A stretch of 64,000 bases of DNA from Parazoarcus communis SWub3 = DSM 12120 (GTDB lineage Bacteria > Pseudomonadota > Gammaproteobacteria > Burkholderiales > Rhodocyclaceae). Shown piece after piece: positions 5,323 through 40,212 of this stretch. Below the pieces are notes generated by a model. It did not search any database, was not told where the DNA came from, and worked only from the letters and a program-made list of their open reading frames with translations. A program made the position numbers and the translations under genes. The number at the start of each line of letters is the position of its first letter. The stretch's first letter is position 1. The stretch covers positions 46,846-110,845 of the forward strand of contig NZ_QKOE01000005.1 of assembly GCF_003226565.1 (NCBI RefSeq), in the 5' to 3' direction.

Positions 5323-8300
5323 ATGGTCATCTCCGAGATCTGCATCAAACGCCCGGTGTTTGCCACGGTGCTGTCCTTGCTGGTCATCCTGATCGGCCTG
5401 ATGTCGTACTCCCGCCTGACCGTGCGCGAGTATCCCAATATCGATGAACCGGTGGTCACGGTTGATACCACTTACCGTGGCGCCAGTGCCGAAATCGTCG
5501 AGTCGCAGGTCACCAAGCCGCTCGAGGATTCTCTGGCGGGGATCGAGGGGGTGGATGTACTGCAGTCGATCAGTCGCCAGGAGCGCAGCCAGATCACCGT
5601 GCGCTTTCGCATCGAGCGCGATGCCGACAGCGCAGCAGCGGATGTGCGCGACCGGGTGTCGCGGGTCCGGCGTCGTTTGCCGGACGATGTTGATGAGCCG
5701 GTGATTGCCAAGGTCGAAGCCGATGCCAACCCCATCATCTGGGTGGCGTTTGCATCCGACCGCCACGACCCGCTGGAGCTGAGCGACTTTGCCAGCCGTA
5801 TCGTCAAGCCGCGGCTGCAGACCTTGCCCGGGGCGGCGGATGCGCGGGTGTTTGGCGAGCGCCGCTATTCGATGCGGATCTGGCTGGACCGCGATCGACT
5901 GGCAGCCTTTGGTGTGACCGCACAGGAGGTCGAGGACGCGATCCGGCGGCAGAACGTGGAGCTGCCTGCTGGCCGTATCGAGGGGCGCGAGCGTGAGTTT
6001 GCCGTGGTCGCGCGCACCGACCTGACCGAGACGACGCAGTTCGAGGCCATCGTGGTGCGGCAGGCGACCGCTGCCGGGGCGTATCCGATCCGGATTCGCG
6101 ACCTGGGGCGGGTGGAGGTCGCACCGGAGAACGAGCGGACCTTGGTGCGCTTCATGGGCAGGCCGGCGATCTCGCTGGGCCTGATCAAGCAGTCCACTGC
6201 CAATCCGCTCGACCTGAAGAAGGGTCTGGTGGAGATGATGCCGGTGCTCGAGGCGGAGTTGCCCGAGGGTATGTCGATGACGATTGCCAACGACACCACG
6301 GTATTCATCGAGCGCTCGATCGATTCGGTGTTCACCACCATCTGGGAGGCGGTGCTGCTGGTGGCAGCGGTGTGCCTGTTCTTCCTGCGAAGCTGGCGGG
6401 CGATGCTGGTGCCGCTGGTGACGATTCCGGTCTCGCTGGTGGGCGCCTTCGCGCTGATGTACGTCATGGGTTTTTCGATCAACACCCTGACCTTACTCGC
6501 GCTGGTGCTGGCGATCGGTCTGGTGGTGGATGATGCGATCGTGGTGCTGGAGAACATCTACCGCCATATCGAGGATGGCATGGCGCCGATGGCTGCGGCG
6601 TTTCGCGGAGCCAGGGAGATCGGCTTTGCCGTGGTGGCAATGACGATCACCCTGGCTGCGGTGTATGCACCGGTGGCCTTCATGACCGGGCGGACCGGCA
6701 AGCTGTTTGCCGAATTTGCCCTGACCTTGGCTGGCGCGGTACTGGTGTCCGGTTTTGTTGCACTGACGCTGTCGCCAATGATGTGCTCCCGCCTGCTGCA
6801 TCACGAGCAGAAGCATGGTGCCGTGTATGTCGCGATCGAACGCTTCCTGGAGTGGCTGACCCAGGGGTACCGCCGGGTACTGGTGCGCATGCTGGGTCTG
6901 CGCTGGATGGTGATGGTGGCGTTTGCACTGGTCGCCGGGAGTGCGGTGGTGCTGCTTGGTCAGCTCAAGTCCGAACTGGCGCCAGTTGAGGACCGAGGGC
7001 GTGTGGTCAGCATCTTCAATGGTCCGGAAGGGGCGACGATGGACTACATGGCCCGCTATGCGGGTCAGATCGAGGACATCTACGGACGTACCGCGGATGT
7101 CGATCGATACCTGGTCATCACTGGCAACCCTACCGTGTCCCAGGGCATCTCGTTTGCCGGCTTTGCTGATTGGTCCGAGCGCGAGCGCAACGCATCGGCG
7201 ATCGCTGCCGAGCTGGGGCCGCAGTTACGTGCGATTCCCGGCATCAATGCCTTTCCGGTACTGCCGGCAGCCTTTGGTCAGAGTCCGCGCTCCAGACCGA
7301 TCAGCTTCGTCGTGGTGAGTTCGGCTTCGTATGAAGAGATGGGGCGCTATACCGACCTGATTGTTGATGAGATGCGCAGCAATCCAGGATTCGTCTCCCC
7401 TGACACCGACCTGAAGCTGACCAAGCCCGAGCTTGGGGTCAAAGTGGATCGCGAGCGGGCGGCTGACCTGGGCGTGCCGGTGGATGTCATCGGGCGTACG
7501 CTGGAAACCATGCTGGGCGGACGCCAGGTGACGCGCTACAAGCTCGATGCCGAACAGTACGATGTGGTTGTGCAGATGGAGGCGGGCAGTCGTGCCGATC
7601 CGCGCGACATCCGCGACATCTATGTGCGCGGCAAGAGTGGCGAGATGGTGCCGCTCGATAACCTGGTCACCGTGGATGAAAGCCTGAGCCCGCGCGAACT
7701 CAATCACTTCGGCCAGCGTCGGGCGGTGACCATCTCCGCCAACCTGGCACCCGACTATTCCATGGGCGAGGCACTGGCTTTTCTCGAGGCTGCCGCTGGC
7801 CGCATCCTGCCGCCCGGCTATGCGGTCGATTACGATGGGCAGTCGCGCGAGTTCAAGAGCAGCTCGGCCAGCCTGGCGCTGGTGTTCCTGCTGGCACTGG
7901 CCTTCATCTACCTGGTGCTGGCGGCGCAGTTCGAGAGCTTTCGTGATCCCTTGATCATCATGCTGACGGTGCCATTGTCGATGGCCGGCGCGTTGGCTGC
8001 GCTGTGGCTGACCGGTGGGACGCTGAACGTTTATAGCCAGATCGGGCTGGTGACGCTGGTCGGGCTGATTACCAAGCACGGCATCCTGATCGTCGAGTTT
8101 GCCAATCAGTTGCGCGATCAGGGGGAACAACTGCGCGCAGCTGTGATCGAAGCTTCCGTGTTGCGTTTACGCCCCATCCTGATGACGACGGGTGCAATGG
8201 TGCTGGGGGCGATTCCGCTGGCGCTGGCGACGGGGGCGGGCGCAGAAAGCCGGCAGCAGATCGGCTGGGTCATCGTGGGTGGTCTGCTGCTGGGTACATT

Positions 8301-22572: not shown

Positions 22573-22692
22573 GGCCGTCGTTCCGATGCCGCCGTTCAGG
22601 TGGCACCCGGAGTCTGTACCCCCGGATCAGGCCCGCCAGCAAGTTGAAGCTTGCTGCGGGCCTGTGTTCATGAAGCCTGGATTGCTGAGTCG

Positions 22693-23772
22693 ATGAGCGC
22701 CCAGCGCAAGATCATCCATTGCGATTGCGACTGTTTTTACGCTGCGGTCGAGATGCGCGACGACCCGAGTCTGCGTGGCAGGCCAGTGGCGGTGGGTGGG
22801 CGTGCCGAGACCCGCGGCGTGATCGCCACCTGCAATTACGAGGCGCGTGCCTTTGGTGTGCATTCGGCAATGTCGACCGCGCGGGCGATGAAGCTGTGTC
22901 CGCAACTGGTGTTGCTGCCACCGGATTTCGAGCGGTATCGCGCGGCCTCGCGCCAGATCCTGGCCATCTACACCGACTACACACCGCTGGTCGAGCCTTT
23001 GTCGCTTGACGAGGCCTACCTCGACGTTACGGGGGTGGCGCGCTGCAAGGGGTCGGCCAGCCTGATGGCCGAGGAAATCCGTGCGCGCATTCACGCGGAA
23101 GTCGGTATCACCGCCTCGGCCGGTATCGCCCCCAACAAGTTCATCGCCAAGGTTGCCAGCGACTGGAACAAGCCCAACGGGCAGTTCGTCGTCAGGCCGC
23201 AGGATGTCGATGCCTTCGTGGCGGCCTTGCCGGTGAAGAAGCTGTTTGGTGTCGGCAAGGTGACCGCTGCGCGCCTGCAAAAGCTGGGTGCCAACACCTG
23301 TGGAGACCTGCGTTCATGGAGTCTGGCCGACCTGACCCGTGAGTTCGGCAGCTTTGGCGCCGCACTCCATCGGCTGTGCCGCGGCATCGATACGCGTGAG
23401 GTCAAGCCGGACCGCACACGCAAGTCCTTGTCGGTAGAGACGACCTACGTGACCGATCTTCCCGACCTTGCCGCCTGCCGGGCAGCCCTGCCGGCGTTGA
23501 TTGGCGAGTTCCGGCGGCGTTTCGAGCGTGCCCGTGAAGCGCGTCCGGTGCACAAGGCCGTCGTCAAGATCAAGTTTGCCGACTTTACCCAGACAACCGT
23601 CGAATGCGTGTCGAGTGCTCCCGACGAATTCGTCTGGCAGCAGTTGCTGGACGAAGGCCACGCCCGCCGCGGCAAACCGGTGCGGCTGCTGGGCGTGGGC
23701 GTGCGTTTTGCCGAAGCCGAGGCTGACGAGCCGGTGCAGATCGATCTGTTCGGGTCGGATCAGGCTCCGTAA
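22693..23772 (+). CDS. dinB: DNA polymerase IV (DinB)
   Basis: N-terminus IIHCDCDCFYAAVEMRDDPSLRGRPVAVGG. Y-family polymerase match over the full length. Confidence 0.9.
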   Translation: MSAQRKIIHCDCDCFYAAVEMRDDPSLRGRPVAVGGRAETRGVIATCNYEARAFGVHSAMSTARAMKLCPQLVLLPPDFERYRAASRQILAIYTDYTPLVEPLSLDEAYLDVTGVARCKGSASLMAEEIRARIHAEVGITASAGIAPNKFIAKVASDWNKPNGQFVVRPQDVDAFVAALPVKKLFGVGKVTAARLQKLGANTCGDLRSWSLADLTREFGSFGAALHRLCRGIDTREVKPDRTRKSLSVETTYVTDLPDLAACRAALPALIGEFRRRFERAREARPVHKAVVKIKFADFTQTTVECVSSAPDEFVWQQLLDEGHARRGKPVRLLGVGVRFAEAEADEPVQIDLFGSDQAP

Positions 23773-25032: not shown

Positions 25033-25656
25033 TCAGACGCGGGCGGTGGGGATGACTTGACGGAAGGTCAGATTCAGGCGTGCGCCGGAAACTGAGGGGG
25101 AGGTGGGGATGGCATGCTCCCAGTGCTGCTGAAACGGCGCGCGCATGAGTAGCAACAGGCCGGGTGGGAGTGGCAGGCGGCCGGCGTCGCCTGGCGTTCC
25201 GGGTTTCGGTCGCCAATGAAAAGACCGGGTGGCACCCAGGCTCAGAGAGGCGATGTGCGGCGCGGGGCCGAGGTCGTCCTCGTCGTCGGCGTGCCAGCTG
25301 ACATGGTCGTCGCCGTCACGATACAGGTTGGCGAGCACCGCATTGAAGGAGACTCCGCAGCATGCCTCCACGCTGGAACGCAGCGCCTGCAGCCGAGGCG
25401 TCCACGCGTGCGAATTGAGCAGTTGCTGCGCGTAGCGGTATTCCACCCCTGCATCAGCGAACCAGCACTGCAGCCGGGGCAGGGCAAAGCGCCGCCCCGC
25501 TGCGATGTAATGGCCTTCGGTCCATGGCGTTTCGGCAAGCAGGACATCGAACAGGGCCTGAGCTGCAGCGGGGTCGAGCACGCTTGCACAGGCCAGCAAG
25601 GGCTGCCCAGGCACGGGCTGCAGCGGGGGGCTCGCAGGAGGCCGGGTCGCGCTCAT
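25033..25656 (-). CDS. alkB: AlkB-family Fe(II)/2-oxoglutarate-dependent dioxygenase (nucleic-acid demethylase type)
   Basis: WHADDEDDLG and HAIPTS...RLNLTFRQV match the E. coli AlkB HxD...H triad and the NLTFRQ C-terminus. Its ATG overlaps the stop of the upstream 1741-aa gene (ATGA). Confidence 0.8.
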   Translation of the reverse strand: MSATRPPASPPLQPVPGQPLLACASVLDPAAAQALFDVLLAETPWTEGHYIAAGRRFALPRLQCWFADAGVEYRYAQQLLNSHAWTPRLQALRSSVEACCGVSFNAVLANLYRDGDDHVSWHADDEDDLGPAPHIASLSLGATRSFHWRPKPGTPGDAGRLPLPPGLLLLMRAPFQQHWEHAIPTSPSVSGARLNLTFRQVIPTARV

Positions 25657-28600
25657 CGGCTTGCCGGCTCCTTGCCCGGGAGGTGGCCTTCCATGCGCTG
25701 CAGCAGGTTGCCAATACGCTTCATGTCTTCCCACATGGCGTGATCCATGCGCATCTTGCGGTAAGTAGCGGTGACCAGCGGGGTCAGTACCTTGTCGTAG
25801 ACTTCCTGCATCTCGCGTAGCGCCGCAGTAAAGCCGCTGGTGTCAGGGGCGCCGACTTCGATGCGGGGCTGCAGCTTGTCCAGGCTGGCTGACATCGCGT
25901 CGAGGCCAGCGCGCACCGCAGCCCCACTGGGCAGGGTGGCGTTCAGGTTGTCGACCGCGCGGGCAATGTCCAGCAAGGTGGCTGCGATCCGTGTGCTGCC
26001 GTCGGCTTCGTCGCCACCCAGTTTGCGTCGGCGGATGAACTCTTCGCGGATGGCCTGCCAGCGTGCGGACTCGTCCTCGGTCTGGCTGCCCAGCAGGGCA
26101 GAGAGCTTCAGCAGGTTCTCTTCGGCACCGGTCGTCAGGGTCTGGGCCTCGCCCCGATAGTGGTCGCGCAGCAGGGCGTCGAGTTCGGCGTCGCGCATCG
26201 AGGCGTTGATACGTCCGGCCAGCTTGGTCATGTTGCGGTAGCTGCCCTGCAGTTTGAACGGCGGCTCGGTACGGTAGGCATCTTGCTGGGCGGCGGATTC
26301 GATGTAGGCCAGGTTGACCTTGAGCAGCAGGTCGCGGGCGCGGAACAAGCGTCGCAGCAGCGCGGTGAGTTCGTTGAGTTCCGCGCCGCTGTAGCCGTGA
26401 CTGAACGTGCTGGCGGCGACCTCTTCGCCTTCGGCCATGCGTACCAGCAGGTGCACATCCTTGGGGTCGCGCGATGCGAGCGGTTGCAGCACGGGATTGG
26501 CGGTGAGGCAGTTCTCGATGTAGGACAGGCCGAACAAGGCTTCCCGTCCTGACAGCACATCGCCCAGGTTGTAGATGTCGGCGCGGTTGGCGAGCATGTC
26601 CGGAATCTTGAAGACGTCGCCGGATTCAGTGTAGGGGTTGCCGGCCATGACGACAGCGAAACGTTTGCCGCGCAGGTCGCAGGTGACAGGTTCGCCATTG
26701 ACGACTGCTTCGATCCGTCGTGTGCCATCGGCCAGGGCGATGAACTTCTGCAGGAACTCGGGGTTGGTGTGCTGGATGTCGTCCAGGTAGAGCATGACAT
26801 TGTTGCCCATTGCCAAGCCGAGATTGAGCTTGAGCAATTCCTGCCGCGCTGCGCTGTGGCTGGCGCTGGCGGGGTCGAGTGCGGTGATGTCGTGACCGAG
26901 CGCCGGGCAGTTGATGCGGACGAAGATCATGCCCAGGCGGTCGGCAATGTACTCCATCAAGGTGGTCTTGCCGTAGCCTGGCGGTGAGATCAGCAGCAGC
27001 AGGCCCATGCGGTCGCTGCGGCTGCCTTCACCCGCGGTGCCGATCTGTTTCGACAGATTGTCGCCGACGATGGGCAGGTAGACCTCGTCGATCAGCCGGT
27101 TGCGGACGAAGGACGACAGTGGCTTGGCCTGGAACTGGTCGAGTTGCAGGCGCTTTTTCTCGTTGGCCACAATCTCGAGGCGCAGCGCCTGCAACTGCTC
27201 GAAGGCTGGCACGAACTGTTCGCGGTGCTGCAGGTAGCGCAGTCGCAGCTCGTTGAGGTTCAGTTGCAGGGCGCCATCGACGATGAGGGGATGTTCGCCC
27301 AGCAGACCGTCGACACGGCGGTCGAGGTCGGCGTTGACGCGCACGCGCTCGATATCGAGTGCGATGCGGGTGGCCGCATCGGCAATCCAGGCGGTGGCGG
27401 CAGTCTGCCCGTGGCAGAACGCGGAGACCCAGGCGCGTGCCAGCTGCCAGCGTTCTTCCGGCGGTGCGGCGGCCAGGTCGCGCTGCCAGTCGGCCAGCTC
27501 GCCCCGTTGTTCAAGCCGGCGGAGCAGGTCATCGGCCAGGTCGGCACCGGCGCCGGAGATGACCCAGGCTTCACCGCCACGTGGCACGGCCAACTGGCGA
27601 ACCAGATAGCGTGCCCCTTCGGTGGCGACCTGGCCCGCCGTGTCGCCTTTGGCGTGGAAGCCAAACTTTGGCGCAAAACGGCTCAGCGCTTCGGTCGTCT
27701 CGCGCTCGAGCTGTGCCAGGCTGTCAGCCGCGTCGAACAGCTCGACCATGCGTGTGGCCGCACGTGCCCGGCGCAGCAGCGATTCGCGTTCGCTGTCGAA
27801 GGCCTGGTGGGACCAGTGGAGCAGGGCGAGGGCGCGCGCCTCCGGGCCGTAGACCAGCAACCCGGCGTCGGCTTGCATGCTGGCCAGGGCTTGCAGCAGA
27901 CGGGCGGCATCCTGGTCGTGTACGCCTTTCTGGTAGCCCTCGTGATAGCGGTCGGCGGCGAAGCGCCTCAGGGCTTCGAGCAATTGGGGCAGGCCGTCCG
28001 GACCCTCGGCGCAGCAGGTCTGCAGCGCCTGCCAGCTCAGCGGACCACGATTGTGTTCGATTGCCTCGAGCACGCTGGCGGCGAGATATTCGCCGCGATA
28101 AAGCTGATCGCTCTCCGAGGGCAGGGGGCTGTCCCACCAGGGGCGCAAGGCGGCCAGGCGATCGTCGGCAACCGGGGCGTAGTAGTCGGTGCCGGTCAGG
28201 TGGAACCACATCTCGCCATTGCGCGGCAGCAGGGTCAGGTCGAGTACCTGACGGTTGACGGTGAAGGCATGGCGGCCGAAACGCAAGGTGTTGCCGTCTT
28301 CGGCCACCAGTTCGCGTCGGTCCCGTACTGCGCGGATGGCCTGGTCGTGCGCAGTGCGCAGCCGGGTATCCAGATCGTCGGCTGCCACTGCGGCGCCGAT
28401 TGCGCGTAGGTCGGCGATCTGTTTGCGCAGCTTGGTGATCAGCGCATCGGCGGCAAAGTAGCTATGGACCTGTTCGATTTCACGCAACTGGGCCACGCGG
28501 CGCGCGATGCCGTCGACAATACGGCCGGCGGCTTCGGTCAGCGCCTGGCTGCGCCGCTGACGGGCGTCGAGCAGGCTCTGACGTCGTGCCGACACGGCTT

Positions 28601-33777: not shown

Positions 33778-34107
33778 TCAGGGCCGTGCCAGGCCTTCGG
33801 CGAACTGGATCAGTTCGCGCGTGACCCGCTCCTTGATCGCCAGGCGGTCATTTGCATCCAGGCCAAAGCGCTGCGCCAGGGCGTTGTAGTCGGCCTGGGT
33901 CAGCGAGACGGTCAGGCGCGGACGCTTGGGGCGGTGATTGACCTGCAGACCAAGAACCTTGCGGATCTGGTCCGAGGTGGACAGGTTGCCTTCGAATGCC
34001 GCGCGGCGCACCGCCTCCAGTACGGTGGCCTCGACATCGAAAGCCACCTGTACGGCCCGGATGGCTTCATCCGAGCCTTGCCAGCGTGGCGGCTTGACGG
34101 CGCTCAT
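33778..34107 (-). CDS. Small soluble protein with two tandem ribbon-helix-helix-like repeats (candidate single-chain RHH DNA-binding regulator)
   Basis: Two roughly 45-aa repeats, each a beta-strand (RAVQVAFDV / RLTVSLTQ) followed by two helices. ATGA overlap with the upstream pspA-like gene. No TM helix. Confidence 0.4.
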   Translation of the reverse strand: MSAVKPPRWQGSDEAIRAVQVAFDVEATVLEAVRRAAFEGNLSTSDQIRKVLGLQVNHRPKRPRLTVSLTQADYNALAQRFGLDANDRLAIKERVTRELIQFAEGLARP

Positions 34108-35236: not shown

Positions 35237-35278
35237 CCTTTCCCCCTCTTAATGTTTAGGTCGATTGACGACACTGCC

Positions 35279-35307
35279 AATCTAGATGTTGTGACATAAA
35301 ATGTCAA
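35279..35307 (-). promoter_or_regulatory. Sigma-70-type promoter for the yjfI-pspA-flotillin-ATPase-alkB operon: -35 TTGACA, 17-bp spacer, -10 TAGATT
   Basis: Read on the minus strand: TTGACA (35307..35302), 17 nt, TAGATT (35284..35279). It lies about 45 nt upstream of the ATG, and the -35 element is embedded in the palindrome. Confidence 0.55.
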
Positions 35308-35320
35308 GACATTTTATGTC
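35293..35320. promoter_or_regulatory. 28-bp nested perfect palindrome GACATAAAATGTC-AA-GACATTTTATGTC; candidate operator overlapping the -35 element
   Basis: Two perfect 13-bp inverted arms, each internally palindromic (GACAT-AAA-ATGTC). AT-rich, in the 384-bp divergent intergenic region. Confidence 0.55.
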
Positions 35321-35619
35321 CAATTGCTTCCAGCTGAAGCGTGAGCGCATGCGCGACGGATTATGCCTTCGTCTTTGGGATTTGCGCTATGAGAAGTGGA
35401 TGAAGCCGACAGGCTGCATGCACCTGCATAGACGCAATGTCGCGCTTTGACGGGATGGTGTGCTGTGCCAGCAAGCCATGCTCTCCCATGACGATCCATC
35501 CTGCGGGCTTCTAGGTCGGGAGGTGGTCGTGATTTGTGGCGTGAATCATGATGCCTTGCCGCACATGCCAAAGCCGATTAGGCTTGAACAGGGCGCTGAC
35601 ACGGGAAGGAGCACGGGTG

Positions 35620-36183
35620 ATGGGTGAAGCTTTGGAATCCGGTTTGTTGAACCGCAAGGCTTACCTTGAGTGGGAAGCCGGACAGGTGGAAAAACACGAA
35701 TATGTGGCTGGCGAGGTGTTCGCGATGGTTGGTGCGCGGCGGGAACACGTGCTGGTCGCAGGGGGGCTGTACGCGAGGTTGAGAGCGCAACTGAAGGGGA
35801 CGCGCTGCCAGGTTTTTGTCTCTGACATGAAGCTCTTCGTTGCGGAAGCTGACGCCTACTTTTATCCAGACGTGATGGTCAGTTGCGACGAAGGTGACCG
35901 CCGTGCCGAGCTGGCAATCGAGCATCCTTGCCTGGTGGTGGAGGTATTGTCCGAGGGTACGGCGGAATACGATCGAGGGGCAAAGTTCGCGGCCTATCGC
36001 AAACTACCGGCCTTGAGCGAGTACCTGCTGGTTGATATCGGAGCCCGTCGCCTGGAGCTGTTCCGGCGTCAGGCTGATGGCTGGTTGATGACCGAGTCTG
36101 TGGCGGGCATGCCGCCGTTGCAATTGCGTAGCGTGGATTGCACGCTGTCTGTCGACGAGGCCTTTGAAGACCTCGTCGATTGA
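35620..36183 (+). CDS. Uma2-family endonuclease (DUF820, PD-(D/E)xK-like putative restriction endonuclease)
   Basis: 188 aa. GGAGG RBS. The motifs PDVMV...ELAIEHPCLVVEVLSEGTAEYDRGAKFAAY match the Uma2 family. Confidence 0.65.
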   Translation: MGEALESGLLNRKAYLEWEAGQVEKHEYVAGEVFAMVGARREHVLVAGGLYARLRAQLKGTRCQVFVSDMKLFVAEADAYFYPDVMVSCDEGDRRAELAIEHPCLVVEVLSEGTAEYDRGAKFAAYRKLPALSEYLLVDIGARRLELFRRQADGWLMTESVAGMPPLQLRSVDCTLSVDEAFEDLVD

Positions 36184-36195
36184 AGCCCGCCAGCG

Positions 36196-36747
36196 TCAGG
36201 CGTTCTTGCGTTTCTGCCACAGCACGTCGCCACGGCCCTCCGCGCGGTTGAGTACGCGGCCAAGCACGAACAGCAGGTCGGACAGGCGGTTCAGATACTG
36301 GCGCGGGCCGTCATTCACCGCTTCTTCCAGCGCCAGTGCGACCAAGGCGCGTTCGGCACGCCGGCAGACGGTACGGGCATGGTGGGCGAGGGCCGCGGCG
36401 CGGGTGCCGCCGGGCAGGATGAAGTCCTTCAGCGGCTCGAGCGGTTCGTTGAAGCTGTCGAGTTGTTCTTCGAGGTGCGTGACCTGCTTCTCGGTGATCA
36501 TGCTCATGCCCGGAATGCATACTTCACCACCAAGGTCGAACAGATCGTGCTGTACGTCGGTCAGCAGTTTGCATACTGCTTCGGGCAGCGCTTCGCACAG
36601 CAGCAAGCCGATGATGGCGTTGACCTCATCCACTTCGCCGAGCGCATGGATGCGCAGGCTGTTCTTGGACACCCGCTTGCCGTCGCCGAGGCCGGTGGTG
36701 CCGGCGTCGCCGGTGCGGGTGTAGATCTTGGAGAGGCGGTGTCCCAT
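36196..36747 (-). CDS. ATP:cob(I)alamin adenosyltransferase, PduO/MMAB type
   Basis: 183 aa. RTGDAGTTGL and the C-terminal helical bundle are PduO-type motifs. Confidence 0.8.
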   Translation of the reverse strand: MGHRLSKIYTRTGDAGTTGLGDGKRVSKNSLRIHALGEVDEVNAIIGLLLCEALPEAVCKLLTDVQHDLFDLGGEVCIPGMSMITEKQVTHLEEQLDSFNEPLEPLKDFILPGGTRAAALAHHARTVCRRAERALVALALEEAVNDGPRQYLNRLSDLLFVLGRVLNRAEGRGDVLWQKRKNA

Positions 36748-37590: not shown

Positions 37591-40212
37591 ATGAAATCCG
37601 CCGAAATCCGCGACAAGTTCCTCAAGTTTTTCGAATCCAAAGGCCACCAGATCGTGGCGTCGAGTTCGCTCGTGCCGCACGACGATCCGACCCTGCTGTT
37701 TACCAATGCGGGCATGAATCAGTTCAAGGATGTGTTCCTTGGCTTTGACAAGCGTCCCTACACCCGCGCCACGACGTCGCAGAAATGCGTGCGCGCCGGT
37801 GGCAAGCACAACGACCTTGAAAACGTCGGCTACACCGCCCGCCATCACACCTTTTTCGAAATGCTGGGCAACTTCAGCTTTGGCGACTACTTCAAGCGTG
37901 ATGCGATCCGCTACGCCTGGGAGCTGCTGACCGAAGTCTTCAAGCTGCCCAAGGACAAGCTCTGGGTCACCGTCTATGCCGAGGACGACGAGGCCTACGA
38001 CATCTGGACCAAAGAGGTCGGGGTGCCGGCCGAGCGCGTGATCCGCATCGGTGACAACAAGGGGGCGCGCTACGCGTCGGACAACTTTTGGATGATGGGT
38101 GACACCGGCCCCTGCGGTCCGTGTACCGAGATCTTCTACGATCACGGCGAGCACATCTGGGGCGGCCCGCCGGGATCGCCCGAGGAGGACGGTGATCGCT
38201 ACATCGAGATCTGGAACAACGTGTTCATGCAGTTCAACCGCGACGAGGCCGGCGTGATGCATCCGCTGCCCAAGCCCTCGGTGGATACCGGCATGGGGCT
38301 GGAGCGGGTGTCCGCAGTACTGCAGGGCGTACACGCCAACTACGAGATCGACCTGTTCCAGAGCCTGATCAAGGCCGCTGCGCGCGAAACGTCGGATGCG
38401 GACATGGATTCGCCCTCGCTGAAGGTGCTGGCCGATCACATCCGCGCCTGCTCCTTCCTGATCGCCGACGGCGTCATTCCCGGCAACGAGGGGCGTGGCT
38501 ATGTGCTGCGCCGAATCATTCGCCGGGCCATCCGCCACGGTTACAAGCTGGGGGCTCGTGCGGCCTTCTTCCACAAACTGGTGCCCGACCTGGTGGCCGA
38601 GATGGGTGAGGCCTATCCCGAACTGAAGGCCGGCGAGCGTCGCGTGAGCGACGTGCTCCGTCAGGAGGAAGAGCGATTCTTTGCCACCATCGAGAACGGC
38701 ATGGCCATCGTCGAGGCCGAGCTCGACGCCATGGCCCAGGCGGGCAACAAGGTGTTCAACGGCGATACCGCGTTCAAACTGCACGACACCTACGGCTTCC
38801 CGCTGGATCTGACCGCCGACATCTGTCGCGAACGTGAAGTCACCGTCGATGCGGCAGCCTTCGATGCCGCCATGGCGCGGCAGAAGGAGCAGGCGCGTGC
38901 TGCGGGCAAGTTCAAGATGGCTGCCAATCTGGAATACGATGGCCCCGCCACGGCTTTCCACGGATATGAGCGCCTGGAAGAAAAAGGCAACATCCTGGCG
39001 TTGTACAAGGATGGTGCGGCGGTCAACGAACTGGTCGAAGGCGATTTCGGTGTCGTCGTGCTGGATAGCACTCCTTTCTACGCAGAATCCGGTGGTCAGG
39101 TTGGCGATCGTGGTGAACTGAAGGGAAGCGCCGGCATCTTTGCGGTGGAAGATACGCAGAAGGTGCAGGCCGCGGTGTTCGGCCACCACGGCGTGGTCAA
39201 GACCGGTCGTATCGCGGTCGGACAGGGTGTGACCGCCCGCGTCGATGTCGCGGCCCGTGCCGCCACCGCGCGCAATCACTCGGTGACCCACCTGATGCAC
39301 AAGGCATTGCGTGAGGTGCTCGGCAGTCACGTGCAGCAGAAGGGCTCGCAGGTTGATCCGGACAAGACCCGTTTTGACTTCGCCCACACCGCGCCGCTGA
39401 CCGCTGAGGAGATCCGCGAGGTCGAAGAGATCGTCAATGCCGAGATCCTCGCCAATGCGGCAACCGACGCTTCGGTGATGGCGCTGGAGGATGCGCAGAA
39501 GACCGGCGCGATGATGCTGTTCGGCGAGAAGTACGCCGATGAAGTGCGGGTACTGACCATCGGTTCGTCCAAGGAACTTTGCGGCGGCACACATGTGAGC
39601 CGTACCGGTGACATCGGCCTGTTCAAGATCGTTGTCGAAGGTGGTGTTGCAGCTGGCGTGCGCCGGGTTGAGGCGGTGACCGGCGAGAACGCGCTGCGTT
39701 ATGCACAGGAGCAGGAGCGCCGTGTGCAGGGCGTATCCGCACTGCTGAAGGTGCAGCCGGAAGAAGTGGCCGAGCGTGTTGCCGGTATCCTGGACAACGT
39801 CCGCGTGCTGGAAAAGGAACTCGCCCGCCTGAAGTCCAAGCTTGCCGCCAGTCAGGGCGATGACCTGGTGGCGCAGGCTGTCGAGGTGAACGGTATCAAG
39901 GTACTGGCGGCCACGCTGGACGGCGCAGATCTACCGACCTTGCGCGAGACCATGGACAAGCTCAAGGACAAGCTCAAGACGGCAGCCATCGTGCTGGGCT
40001 CGGTCGCCGATGGCAAGGTGTCGCTGATCGCCGGGGTGACGGCGGACTCGACGGCCAAGGTCAAGGCGGGCGAACTGGTGAACTTTGTTGCCCAGCAAGT
40101 GGGTGGCAAGGGCGGCGGCCGTCCGGACATGGCCCAGGCCGGCGGTACCGAGCCTGACAAGCTGCCGGCCGCACTGGCCGCAGTGGCCGGCTGGGTGGGC
40201 GGCAAGCTGTAA
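37591..40212 (+). CDS. alaS: Alanine--tRNA ligase
   Basis: 873 aa. Full-length match to AlaS (e.g. [10 protein letters not shown], the C-terminal editing domain and the DHHA1 domain). Confidence 0.95.

Follow-up and report, generated by a model that had tools for sequence, protein, structure and literature searches.

Genetic organization of the locus

The window, that is, the whole stretch of 64,000 nucleotides of Parazoarcus communis DNA analysed here, carries on its minus strand a six-gene operon that encodes a DUF2170 protein, a PspA-like protein, a small protein that we call RHH109, a YqiJ-like protein, a flotillin-like protein and a giant AAA+ ATPase (Table 1). The same gene order characterises a class reported by Ravi et al. 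2024 (PMC11237479), where a CesT/Tir-PspA dyad goes together with a band-7/flotillin protein, an AAA+ ATPase considered novel and a membrane protein of the YqiJ/YuaF type. The operon is also homologous to bacABCDEF of Pseudomonas aeruginosa (PMC2587700, PMC10948618). The flotillin-like protein gave no match to Pfam Band_7 even at an E value of 1, although its homologues are described as band-7/flotillin proteins.

The initial annotation had proposed a neighbouring Crp-family protein as a possible regulator of this operon; however, the upstream neighbour is a divergent Uma2-family gene, and no Crp-family gene was present among the 20 ORFs scanned in the regions 19.5-25.7 kb and 35.5-41.5 kb. 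There is also no bEBP gene near the operon. Homologues of RHH109 or of the DUF2170 protein were absent from the plasmid collection, and thus there is no sign that this module is carried by plasmids.

Table 1. Features of the promoter region, the operon and its neighbours (positions in the window)
Feature	Position	Strand	Remarks
Distal 13-bp palindrome GACATAAAATGTC	35308..35320	-	about -48..-36 relative to the predicted start
Proximal 13-bp palindrome GACATTTTATGTC	35293..35305	-	about -33..-21; universally conserved core operator (putative)
-35 hexamer TTGACA	35302..35307	-	promoter scan
-10 hexamer TAGATT	35279..35284	-	17 nt after the -35; 4 of 6 consensus bases
Predicted transcription start	35272	-	inferred, 7 nt after the -10; 5' UTR of about 36 nt
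Shine-Dalgarno-like sequence GAGGGGGA	35241..35248	-	upstream of the ATG at 35236
Gene 1, DUF2170/YjfI/BacA-like, CesT/Tir-like chaperone fold, 138 aa	34820..35236	-	Pfam PF09938, E 4.7e-28; PDB 8q8o (P. aeruginosa BacA), E 2e-8
Gene 2, PspA/IM30 family, YjfJ/BacB-like, 234 aa	34104..34808	-	Pfam PF04012, E 4e-31
Gene 3, RHH109, 109 aa, probable two-repeat ribbon-helix-helix protein, proposed autorepressor	33778..34107	-	no Pfam match
Gene 4, YqiJ/YuaF-like membrane protein, 205-215 aa	33117..33764	-	family according to Ravi et al. 2024 (PMC11237479); no Pfam match
Gene 5, flotillin-like, TM + band-7 + coiled-coil, 701 aa	30948..33053	-	weak NCBIfam FloT match, E 0.014; PA3729 homologue; architecture according to PMC11237479
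Gene 6, DUF3686 + DUF7902 + AAA+ ATPase, 1741 aa	25653..30878	-	Pfam PF12458, E 2e-197, and AAA domains
Uma2-family gene (putative restriction endonuclease-like), diverges from the operon	35548-36183	+	not conserved at other loci
DinB/IMS-family polymerase gene	22651-23772	+	neighbour scan
AlkB-like 2OG-Fe(II) oxygenase gene, directly after the operon	25033-25734	-	neighbour scan
Cob(I)alamin adenosyltransferase gene	36196-36747	-	neighbour scan
alaS	37591-40212	+	neighbour scan

The promoter of the operon overlaps a nested palindrome

The sequence of the minus strand from 35320 to 35293, read directly, is GACATAAAATGTC-TT-GACATTTTATGTC, and up to 35279 the complete region reads GACATAAAATGTC TT GACATTTTATGTC ACAACATC TAGATT. 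The repeat finder reported the same 28-bp element as inverted repeat I3, whose 13-nt arms (35293-35305 and 35308-35320) are 100% complementary and separated by a gap of 2 nt. Each arm is itself a perfect dyad, GACAT-N3-ATGTC, a symmetry that would suit a dimeric DNA-binding protein, and the two are mirror images of each other, the second copy lying 15 bp upstream of the proximal one; the element therefore holds four half-sites in alternating orientation, with their centres 8, 7 and 8 bp apart. The promoter scan identified TTGACA, 17 nt and TAGATT on the minus strand (35307..35279; 10/12 matches), and the proximal palindrome includes the final four bases of the -35 hexamer and extends over the upstream half of the spacer. 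All three approaches reproduced exactly the palindrome and the promoter that the initial annotation had described. The distance to the start of the first gene, which it gave as about 45 nt, is 42 nt when counted from the -10 hexamer to the ATG of the DUF2170 gene, and the G+C content, which it put at 66% for the genome, is about 63% in the window and 60.5% around the site. The scan of 1.6 kb returned two promoter matches against 0.8 expected, a result that is not significant by itself; the significance of this match comes from its conservation in other genomes and not from its score.

A sigma-54 element (TGGCAC-N5-TTGCW) could not be found with up to two mismatches in the region 35237-35547, which bears out the earlier statement that this promoter has no -24/-12 element. 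The 19-20 nt spacer typical of MerR-type promoters is also absent, the spacer being of 17 nt here and in the related loci. The site scan detected no terminator-like site, and the region had no Rfam match at E <=1. The 13-mer and its degenerate form occur at a single locus in the window. A third half-site, AACAT at 35286-35290 (repeat I5), was considered and rejected since it is not conserved in other loci. A weak promoter-like match on the plus strand (35274-35302) also overlaps the palindrome.

The promoter and the proximal palindrome are conserved in register

We retrieved 80 loci using only the RHH109 protein family as the selection criterion, from contigs representing one genome per species. 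The promoter region could be evaluated in 75 of them; four lack upstream DNA, and in another one (L070) the promoter region is masked by N. These 75 loci span three betaproteobacterial orders, Rhodocyclales, Burkholderiales (Variovorax, Hydrogenophaga, Rhizobacter, Aquabacterium) and Neisseriales (Chitiniphilus, Chitinolyticbacter). The sequence TTGACAT-N3-ATGTC was found just upstream of the DUF2170 gene and in the same register in 75/75 loci, and the proximal core TTGACATNNNATGTC is perfect in 70/75, with one or two mismatches in the other five. A -10 element of the form TAnnnT is located exactly 17 nt after the -35 (TATAGT, TAAAGT, TACATT, TAATCT and TAGATT, among other variants). The sigma-70-type promoter assigned to this operon at the outset is therefore present, with its -35, its 17-nt spacer and its -10 in register, in every evaluable genome. 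Synteny holds for all six genes in every locus whose contig is long enough to show them. The upstream neighbours vary.

When 138 unique promoter regions were anchored on the palindrome, 136 carried the TTGACA hexamer, and the information content was near maximal over TTGACAT..TATGTC, clear at TA...T and approximately zero in the flanks, the intergenic DNA on both sides being saturated with changes among the compared loci. The ATGTC half located in the spacer equals the -35 hexamer in its degree of conservation; the central N3 of the palindrome varies while the sequence of the half-sites is maintained. To our knowledge, ATGTC in the spacer has no role in sigma-70 recognition, and its invariance within unconserved surroundings points to a bound protein. 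This supports the earlier proposal of a high-affinity operator that overlaps the -35, on which a regulator would be predicted to bind.

The distal palindrome shows a different distribution. It is present with at most one mismatch in 29/75 genome loci and is lineage-specific: it occurs in Rhodocyclales, Neisseriales and Shewanella-type loci, and in Variovorax and the majority of the other Burkholderiales an A/T-rich tract takes its place. Perfect copies of the palindrome occur only at the operon promoter in about 0.9 Mb of related loci, with one promoter-linked palindrome locus per 12-kb related locus.

The double palindrome identifies the same operon in metagenomes

The reverse analysis used the exact 28-bp pattern GACAT-N3-ATGTC-N2-GACAT-N3-ATGTC as a query against the metagenome collection. 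It recovered 107 stretches, 79 with a TT/AA centre, which creates the TTGACA hexamer, and 28 with other centres. A DUF2170 gene lies less than 300 nt downstream, in the direction of the promoter, in 68/79 TT/AA-centred matches; one more is associated with a YqiJ-like gene, four run off the contig and six precede other genes. Accordingly, 69 of the 75 evaluable TT-centred matches (92%) are directly upstream of this operon family, and the six remaining ones indicate that the site is not strictly exclusive to the PspA-flotillin operon. The 28 matches with other centres are mostly unrelated sequences, although three of them carry operon genes (including L104). No match to the 28-bp pattern was obtained in viral contigs. 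The possibility raised initially, that the palindrome could be a dispersed repeat, does not agree with a single copy in 64 kb, locus specificity in metagenomes and absence from viral contigs.

Several low-GC relatives carry the double palindrome twice in the cluster (L104, 4682-4712 and 7095-7122; L130, 3250-3277; L179), once before the DUF2170 gene and once before the YqiJ-flotillin-AAA+ genes, and in these clusters the RHH gene is followed by an inserted Peptidase_M50B gene. Operator-like double palindromes, with good promoters, were also seen before an RDD-family membrane protein gene (L108, 7130-7157; probably also L176), before a small membrane ORF, where a third palindrome lies near +1 (L107, 1842-1900), and before a small ORF of unclear identity (L112, 7938-7965); another contig has four copies of the palindrome in 85 bp (L095, 150-232). 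These sites may represent further members of the regulon. Other metagenome contigs with a G+C content of 23-36% have no operon genes nearby (L084, L118, L136, L142, L138); several of them share the unrelated sequence GACATGTAATGTCGTGACATACGATGTC or its complement, and others carry 15-bp direct repeats such as GACATGCCATGTCAT.

The putative operator follows the RHH109 gene

A homologue of RHH109 (41-99% identity) is encoded in 27/27 contigs that were selected by the operator and extend at least 3.5 kb downstream. Among these contigs are some from organisms with 37-54% G+C, in which DUF2170 and PspA share only 40-50% identity with their counterparts in the window. In the low-GC operons, a Spermine_synth gene is followed by the operator and by the genes for DUF2170, PspA, a 217-aa ORF without Pfam match and RHH109, and the YqiJ, flotillin and AAA+ genes are missing. 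This arrangement matches the Shewanella-type neighbourhood reported by Ravi et al., "...Spermine_synth, CesT_Tir-DUF2170, PspA, DUF4178, RHH", in which the last gene was assigned to an RHH transcription factor (PMC11237479); in the metagenome loci with this gene order the RHH109 homologues show 41-52% identity. Both RHH109 and the GACAT palindrome are absent from 7/7 gammaproteobacterial operons (of DUF2170-PspA-YqiJ-flotillin-AAA+ or yjfI type), and E. coli K-12 yjfI has neither the gene nor the palindrome.

Given that DUF2170 and PspA are encoded in all these operons, and that flotillin and AAA+ proteins are encoded in the Pseudomonas type but not in the Shewanella type, the gene that the operator follows is that of RHH109. 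This phylogenetic profile strongly favours the operon-encoded RHH-like protein, one of the two candidates named in the initial annotation, as the protein that we infer to bind the operator.

The RHH109 proteins of Variovorax (L020-L053) have Gly/Lys-rich C-terminal tails with AT-hook-like GKPGRK or GRPVRGK motifs. A covariation between this basic tail and the loss of the distal palindrome was contemplated and dropped, because the extraction of the tails was unreliable, the trend existed only at clade level and L040 was a counter-example.

RHH109 resembles ribbon-helix-helix proteins

Sequence comparisons provide weak to moderate evidence that RHH109 is a tandem ribbon-helix-helix DNA-binding protein. 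The RHH109 of the window has no Pfam RHH match; however, some homologues are named "Ribbon-helix-helix protein CopG domain-containing" in the database, one of them matches Pfam FitA-like_RHH over residues 25-53 with E 1.9e-5 and 24.9 bits, slightly below the cutoff of 27, and other members of the family show scattered weak matches to RHH_1, RHH_5 and NikA-like. Against reference sequences entered by hand, a profile of the N-terminal half gave an ungapped hhalign alignment over the whole strand-helix-turn-helix of CopG (probability of 82%, score 25.9), and FitA and Arc gave 49% and 28%, respectively; the maximum score among shuffled controls (n=45) was 14.6. The C-terminal half reached 31% with CopG. 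The putative strands AVQVAF and RPRLTVSL are nearly invariant across homologues that are 40% identical, which matches the invariance of the GACAT half-sites.

The comparison of the N-terminal and C-terminal halves by hhalign did not reveal an internal duplication, and thus the idea of two repeats rests on external comparisons only. Searches of PDB sequences with two RHH109 profiles produced nothing meaningful, and a Foldseek search against the PDB gave no significant match.

A different palindrome precedes the gammaproteobacterial bac operons

The sequence of P. aeruginosa BacA was rebuilt from a PDB alignment and its relatives were identified, from which seven gammaproteobacterial loci of the Pseudomonas/Xanthomonas type were retrieved (L081, which is P. 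aeruginosa, L082, L083 and L191-L194). The P. aeruginosa bac operon comprises genes for DUF2170, PspA-like, YqiJ-like, flotillin-like and DUF3686 AAA+ proteins. Just upstream of the DUF2170 gene, all seven loci carry two copies of a different palindrome, TYACATGTRA, which are 22-24 bp apart in 6/7 loci (L081, positions 5952-6003) and 52 bp apart in L083, and flank a TTGACA-like -35. The end of a -10-like hexamer lies 6-7 nt ahead of the ATG, and this short distance suggests that the bacA/yjfI mRNA of these bacteria is probably leaderless.

The DUF2170 protein of these loci has 206 aa, of which about 50 at the N-terminus form a strongly conserved extension, ME.KSSA.YQRL.RQRLREQGLVKKEVWILPE.A..LAA.ER.LRQP (residues 1-50 of P0123, L081 6001-6150, and 97 further homologues), which is absent from the DUF2170 protein of the window and from the crystallised 146-aa form. 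The extension gave one weak match, to a MazE-like Pfam family (E 0.003), and may be a DNA-binding module of the gamma lineage. The hypothesis that it corresponds to a fused RHH109 (a Rosetta stone) was rejected, given that hhalign detected no similarity to either half of RHH109 or to known RHH proteins. Published proteomics indicate that the P. aeruginosa operon is negatively controlled from within (PMC10948618), and the BacA extension together with TYACATGTRA may explain this negative control attributed to BacA. The sigma-54 site of the same operon was proposed by its authors from the sequence alone (PMC2587700, PMC10948618).

A search at the DNA level with a gamma-type locus yielded no match in E. 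coli, and the yjfI region of strain K-12 was read directly instead. The yjfIJKLMC operon has neither type of palindrome (upstream of yjfI, L199, 5050-5133), no RHH109 gene and no N-terminal extension in YjfI, and its regulation must differ again.

Proposed regulation and alternative explanations

On balance, and with moderate confidence, we propose that the six-gene operon is transcribed from a sigma-70 promoter that is autorepressed by its own product RHH109. The essential operator unit would be the proximal GACAT-N3-ATGTC, which has four bases in common with the -35. Given its location at about -33 to -21 from the predicted start, a protein bound there would inevitably collide with the polymerase and with region 4 of sigma; hence RHH109 would cover the -35 and the spacer, exclude RNA polymerase and repress the operon. 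The perfect -35 and the optimal 17-nt spacer imply that the promoter needs no activator, and this, along with the lack of a sigma-54 element and of a MerR-like spacer, favours negative autoregulation by RHH109. In a plausible geometry, each RHH109 chain would be an asymmetric single-chain RHH pseudo-dimer reading one non-palindromic GACAT half-site, and successive molecules, each turned relative to the one before, would follow at intervals of 7-8 bp, in the manner of MetJ dimers on tandem 8-bp met boxes; the expected stoichiometry would then be two RHH109 molecules per 13-bp palindrome and four per 28-bp element. The signal is presumably membrane stress. We speculate that the repressor could be titrated by the CesT-like DUF2170 protein or by PspA, by analogy with the PspA-PspF interaction and with the partner switching between chaperones and regulators of type III secretion.

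A more far-reaching version, which we regard as doubtful, would make GACAT-N3-ATGTC and RHH109 the partner-switching master switch of a widespread PspA/flotillin/AAA+ membrane-repair system, in which the DUF2170 protein or PspA would titrate the repressor when the membrane is damaged, with a different module, fused to the N-terminus of BacA, recognising TYACATGTRA on a leaderless transcript in Pseudomonas and Xanthomonas. If this were true, the sigma-54 model published for the bac operon would be incorrect, and the negative control by BacA would be direct autorepression.

In an alternative that we consider unlikely, the promoter and operator are correctly assigned but the binder is a regulator encoded elsewhere on the chromosome, for instance a global factor of membrane stress or metabolism, and RHH109 has another role, such as the control of other targets or that of an adaptor between proteins. 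The weak support for the DNA-binding fold of RHH109 leaves room for such a factor, and the six operator-like sites before other genes, including those of RDD-family membrane proteins, would fit a wider regulon; moreover, the co-occurrence is correlative, and since DUF2170 and PspA are present wherever RHH109 is, a co-inherited factor would be compatible with it. Against this, the operator accompanies RHH109 across operons that have only DUF2170 and PspA in common and is missing where these two occur without RHH109, so that the unlinked factor would need an identical patchy distribution; in addition, the loci share no other DNA-binding gene next to the operon, where the upstream neighbours change from one genome to another. 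We assign a lower probability to an activating or dual role of RHH109, for example class II-like activation from the distal site. The distal palindrome is indeed centred at about -42, a position used by class II activators, the -10 of the window matches only 4 of 6 consensus bases, and some RHH proteins activate transcription. Nevertheless, the copy that is universally conserved is the proximal one, whose centre at about -27 within the spacer is a repressor position, and the distal copy is missing in most Burkholderiales; furthermore, a perfect TTGACA with a 17-nt spacer does not require activation, and the homologous P. aeruginosa operon is under negative control from within according to the proteomics (PMC10948618).

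That the palindrome is a structural or mobile element without operator function (REP-like sequence, cruciform, recombination site, terminator or structured RNA) seems to us highly improbable. A cruciform or hairpin could form from a perfect 28-bp palindrome, and A/T-rich palindromes occur in repeat families, but the element is found once in 64 kb, its perfect copies in the related loci are confined to the promoter and the great majority of its TT-centred metagenome matches fall at the same operon. It resembles no terminator or Rfam family, and it terminates nothing, since the flanking genes diverge from it; besides, what is kept is the sequence of the half-sites and not merely their pairing potential, with a central N3 that varies. 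The idea that an A/T-rich patch fits the promoter consensus and is symmetric by accident has practically no probability left. Promoter-like matches are common, as the scan illustrated; however, we estimate that about 0.01 perfect 13-nt inverted repeats with a short loop would be expected in 64 kb of this composition, and the decisive observation, conservation at the same position in 75/75 genomes, refutes chance.

PspA/IM30/ESCRT-III-like proteins are central to membrane repair, and their regulation is understood mainly for sigma-54/PspF, LiaRS and ClgR. In P. aeruginosa, the YjfI-YjfJ/Bac family has been linked to virulence and to the formation of biofilms; no established regulator of this family was found in the literature searched. 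The present analysis offers RHH109 as a named candidate repressor for an operon of the YjfI/YjfJ/Bac type and a precise cis-element, with 10 invariant bases kept across genomes of 35% to 70% G+C, that can guide genomic searches for other regulon members. Natural controls are available in the lineages whose palindrome and module differ and in E. coli, which has neither.

Comparison with known regulatory systems

RHH109 is reminiscent of the RHH autorepressors Arc and Mnt of P22, CopG of pMV158 and MetJ. As in those systems, a small protein encoded in the regulated operon, here a probable RHH protein, is predicted to bind short symmetric tandem subsites that overlap the -35 and the spacer, where cooperative binding of several copies is to be expected, and the 7-8 bp spacing of the GACAT half-sites resembles the 8-bp array of met boxes recognised by MetJ. 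It differs in that RHH109 appears to hold two RHH-like repeats in one chain of 109 aa, in that the GACAT half-site and the 13-bp unit are distinct from theirs, and in that these repressors belong to a phage, a plasmid or a metabolic regulon, whereas RHH109 belongs to a chromosomal membrane-stress operon. Single-chain or tandem RHH proteins, TraY of the F plasmid and AvtR of a lipothrixvirus, are among the closest known systems.

In the classical Psp regulation, PspA titrates PspF. The Psp system of E. coli and Yersinia, with its sigma-54 promoter, the enhancer-binding protein PspF and PspA as anti-activator, likewise consists of an operon headed by PspA-family and partner genes, with internal feedback and presumably induced by membrane stress; in contrast, the operon of the window has no -24/-12 element and no bEBP nearby, and instead a sigma-70-type promoter and a putative repressor. 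P. aeruginosa bacABCDEF (PA3732-PA3727; PMC2587700, PMC10948618) has a homologous set of genes and a reported internal negative control, but it lacks RHH109, its BacA carries the extension of about 50 aa, and it is preceded by two TTACATGTGA palindromes and not by GACAT-N3-ATGTC. Regarding the Shewanella-type CesT/Tir(DUF2170)-PspA-DUF4178-RHH operon (PMC11237479), metagenome loci with its gene order carry the double GACAT palindrome before DUF2170, but its partners are a spermidine-synthase-like protein, DUF350 and an ion channel, with no flotillin or AAA+ protein.

A description of the operator was not found in Ravi et al. 2024 (PMC11237479), nor did full-text literature searches for the operon, the gene names and the operator sequences return any description of the operator-regulator pair. 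An autorepressor operator placed inside a promoter is a classical mechanism; what appears to be new is the pair formed by the GACAT operator and RHH109, and its link to the YjfI/YjfJ/Bac family.
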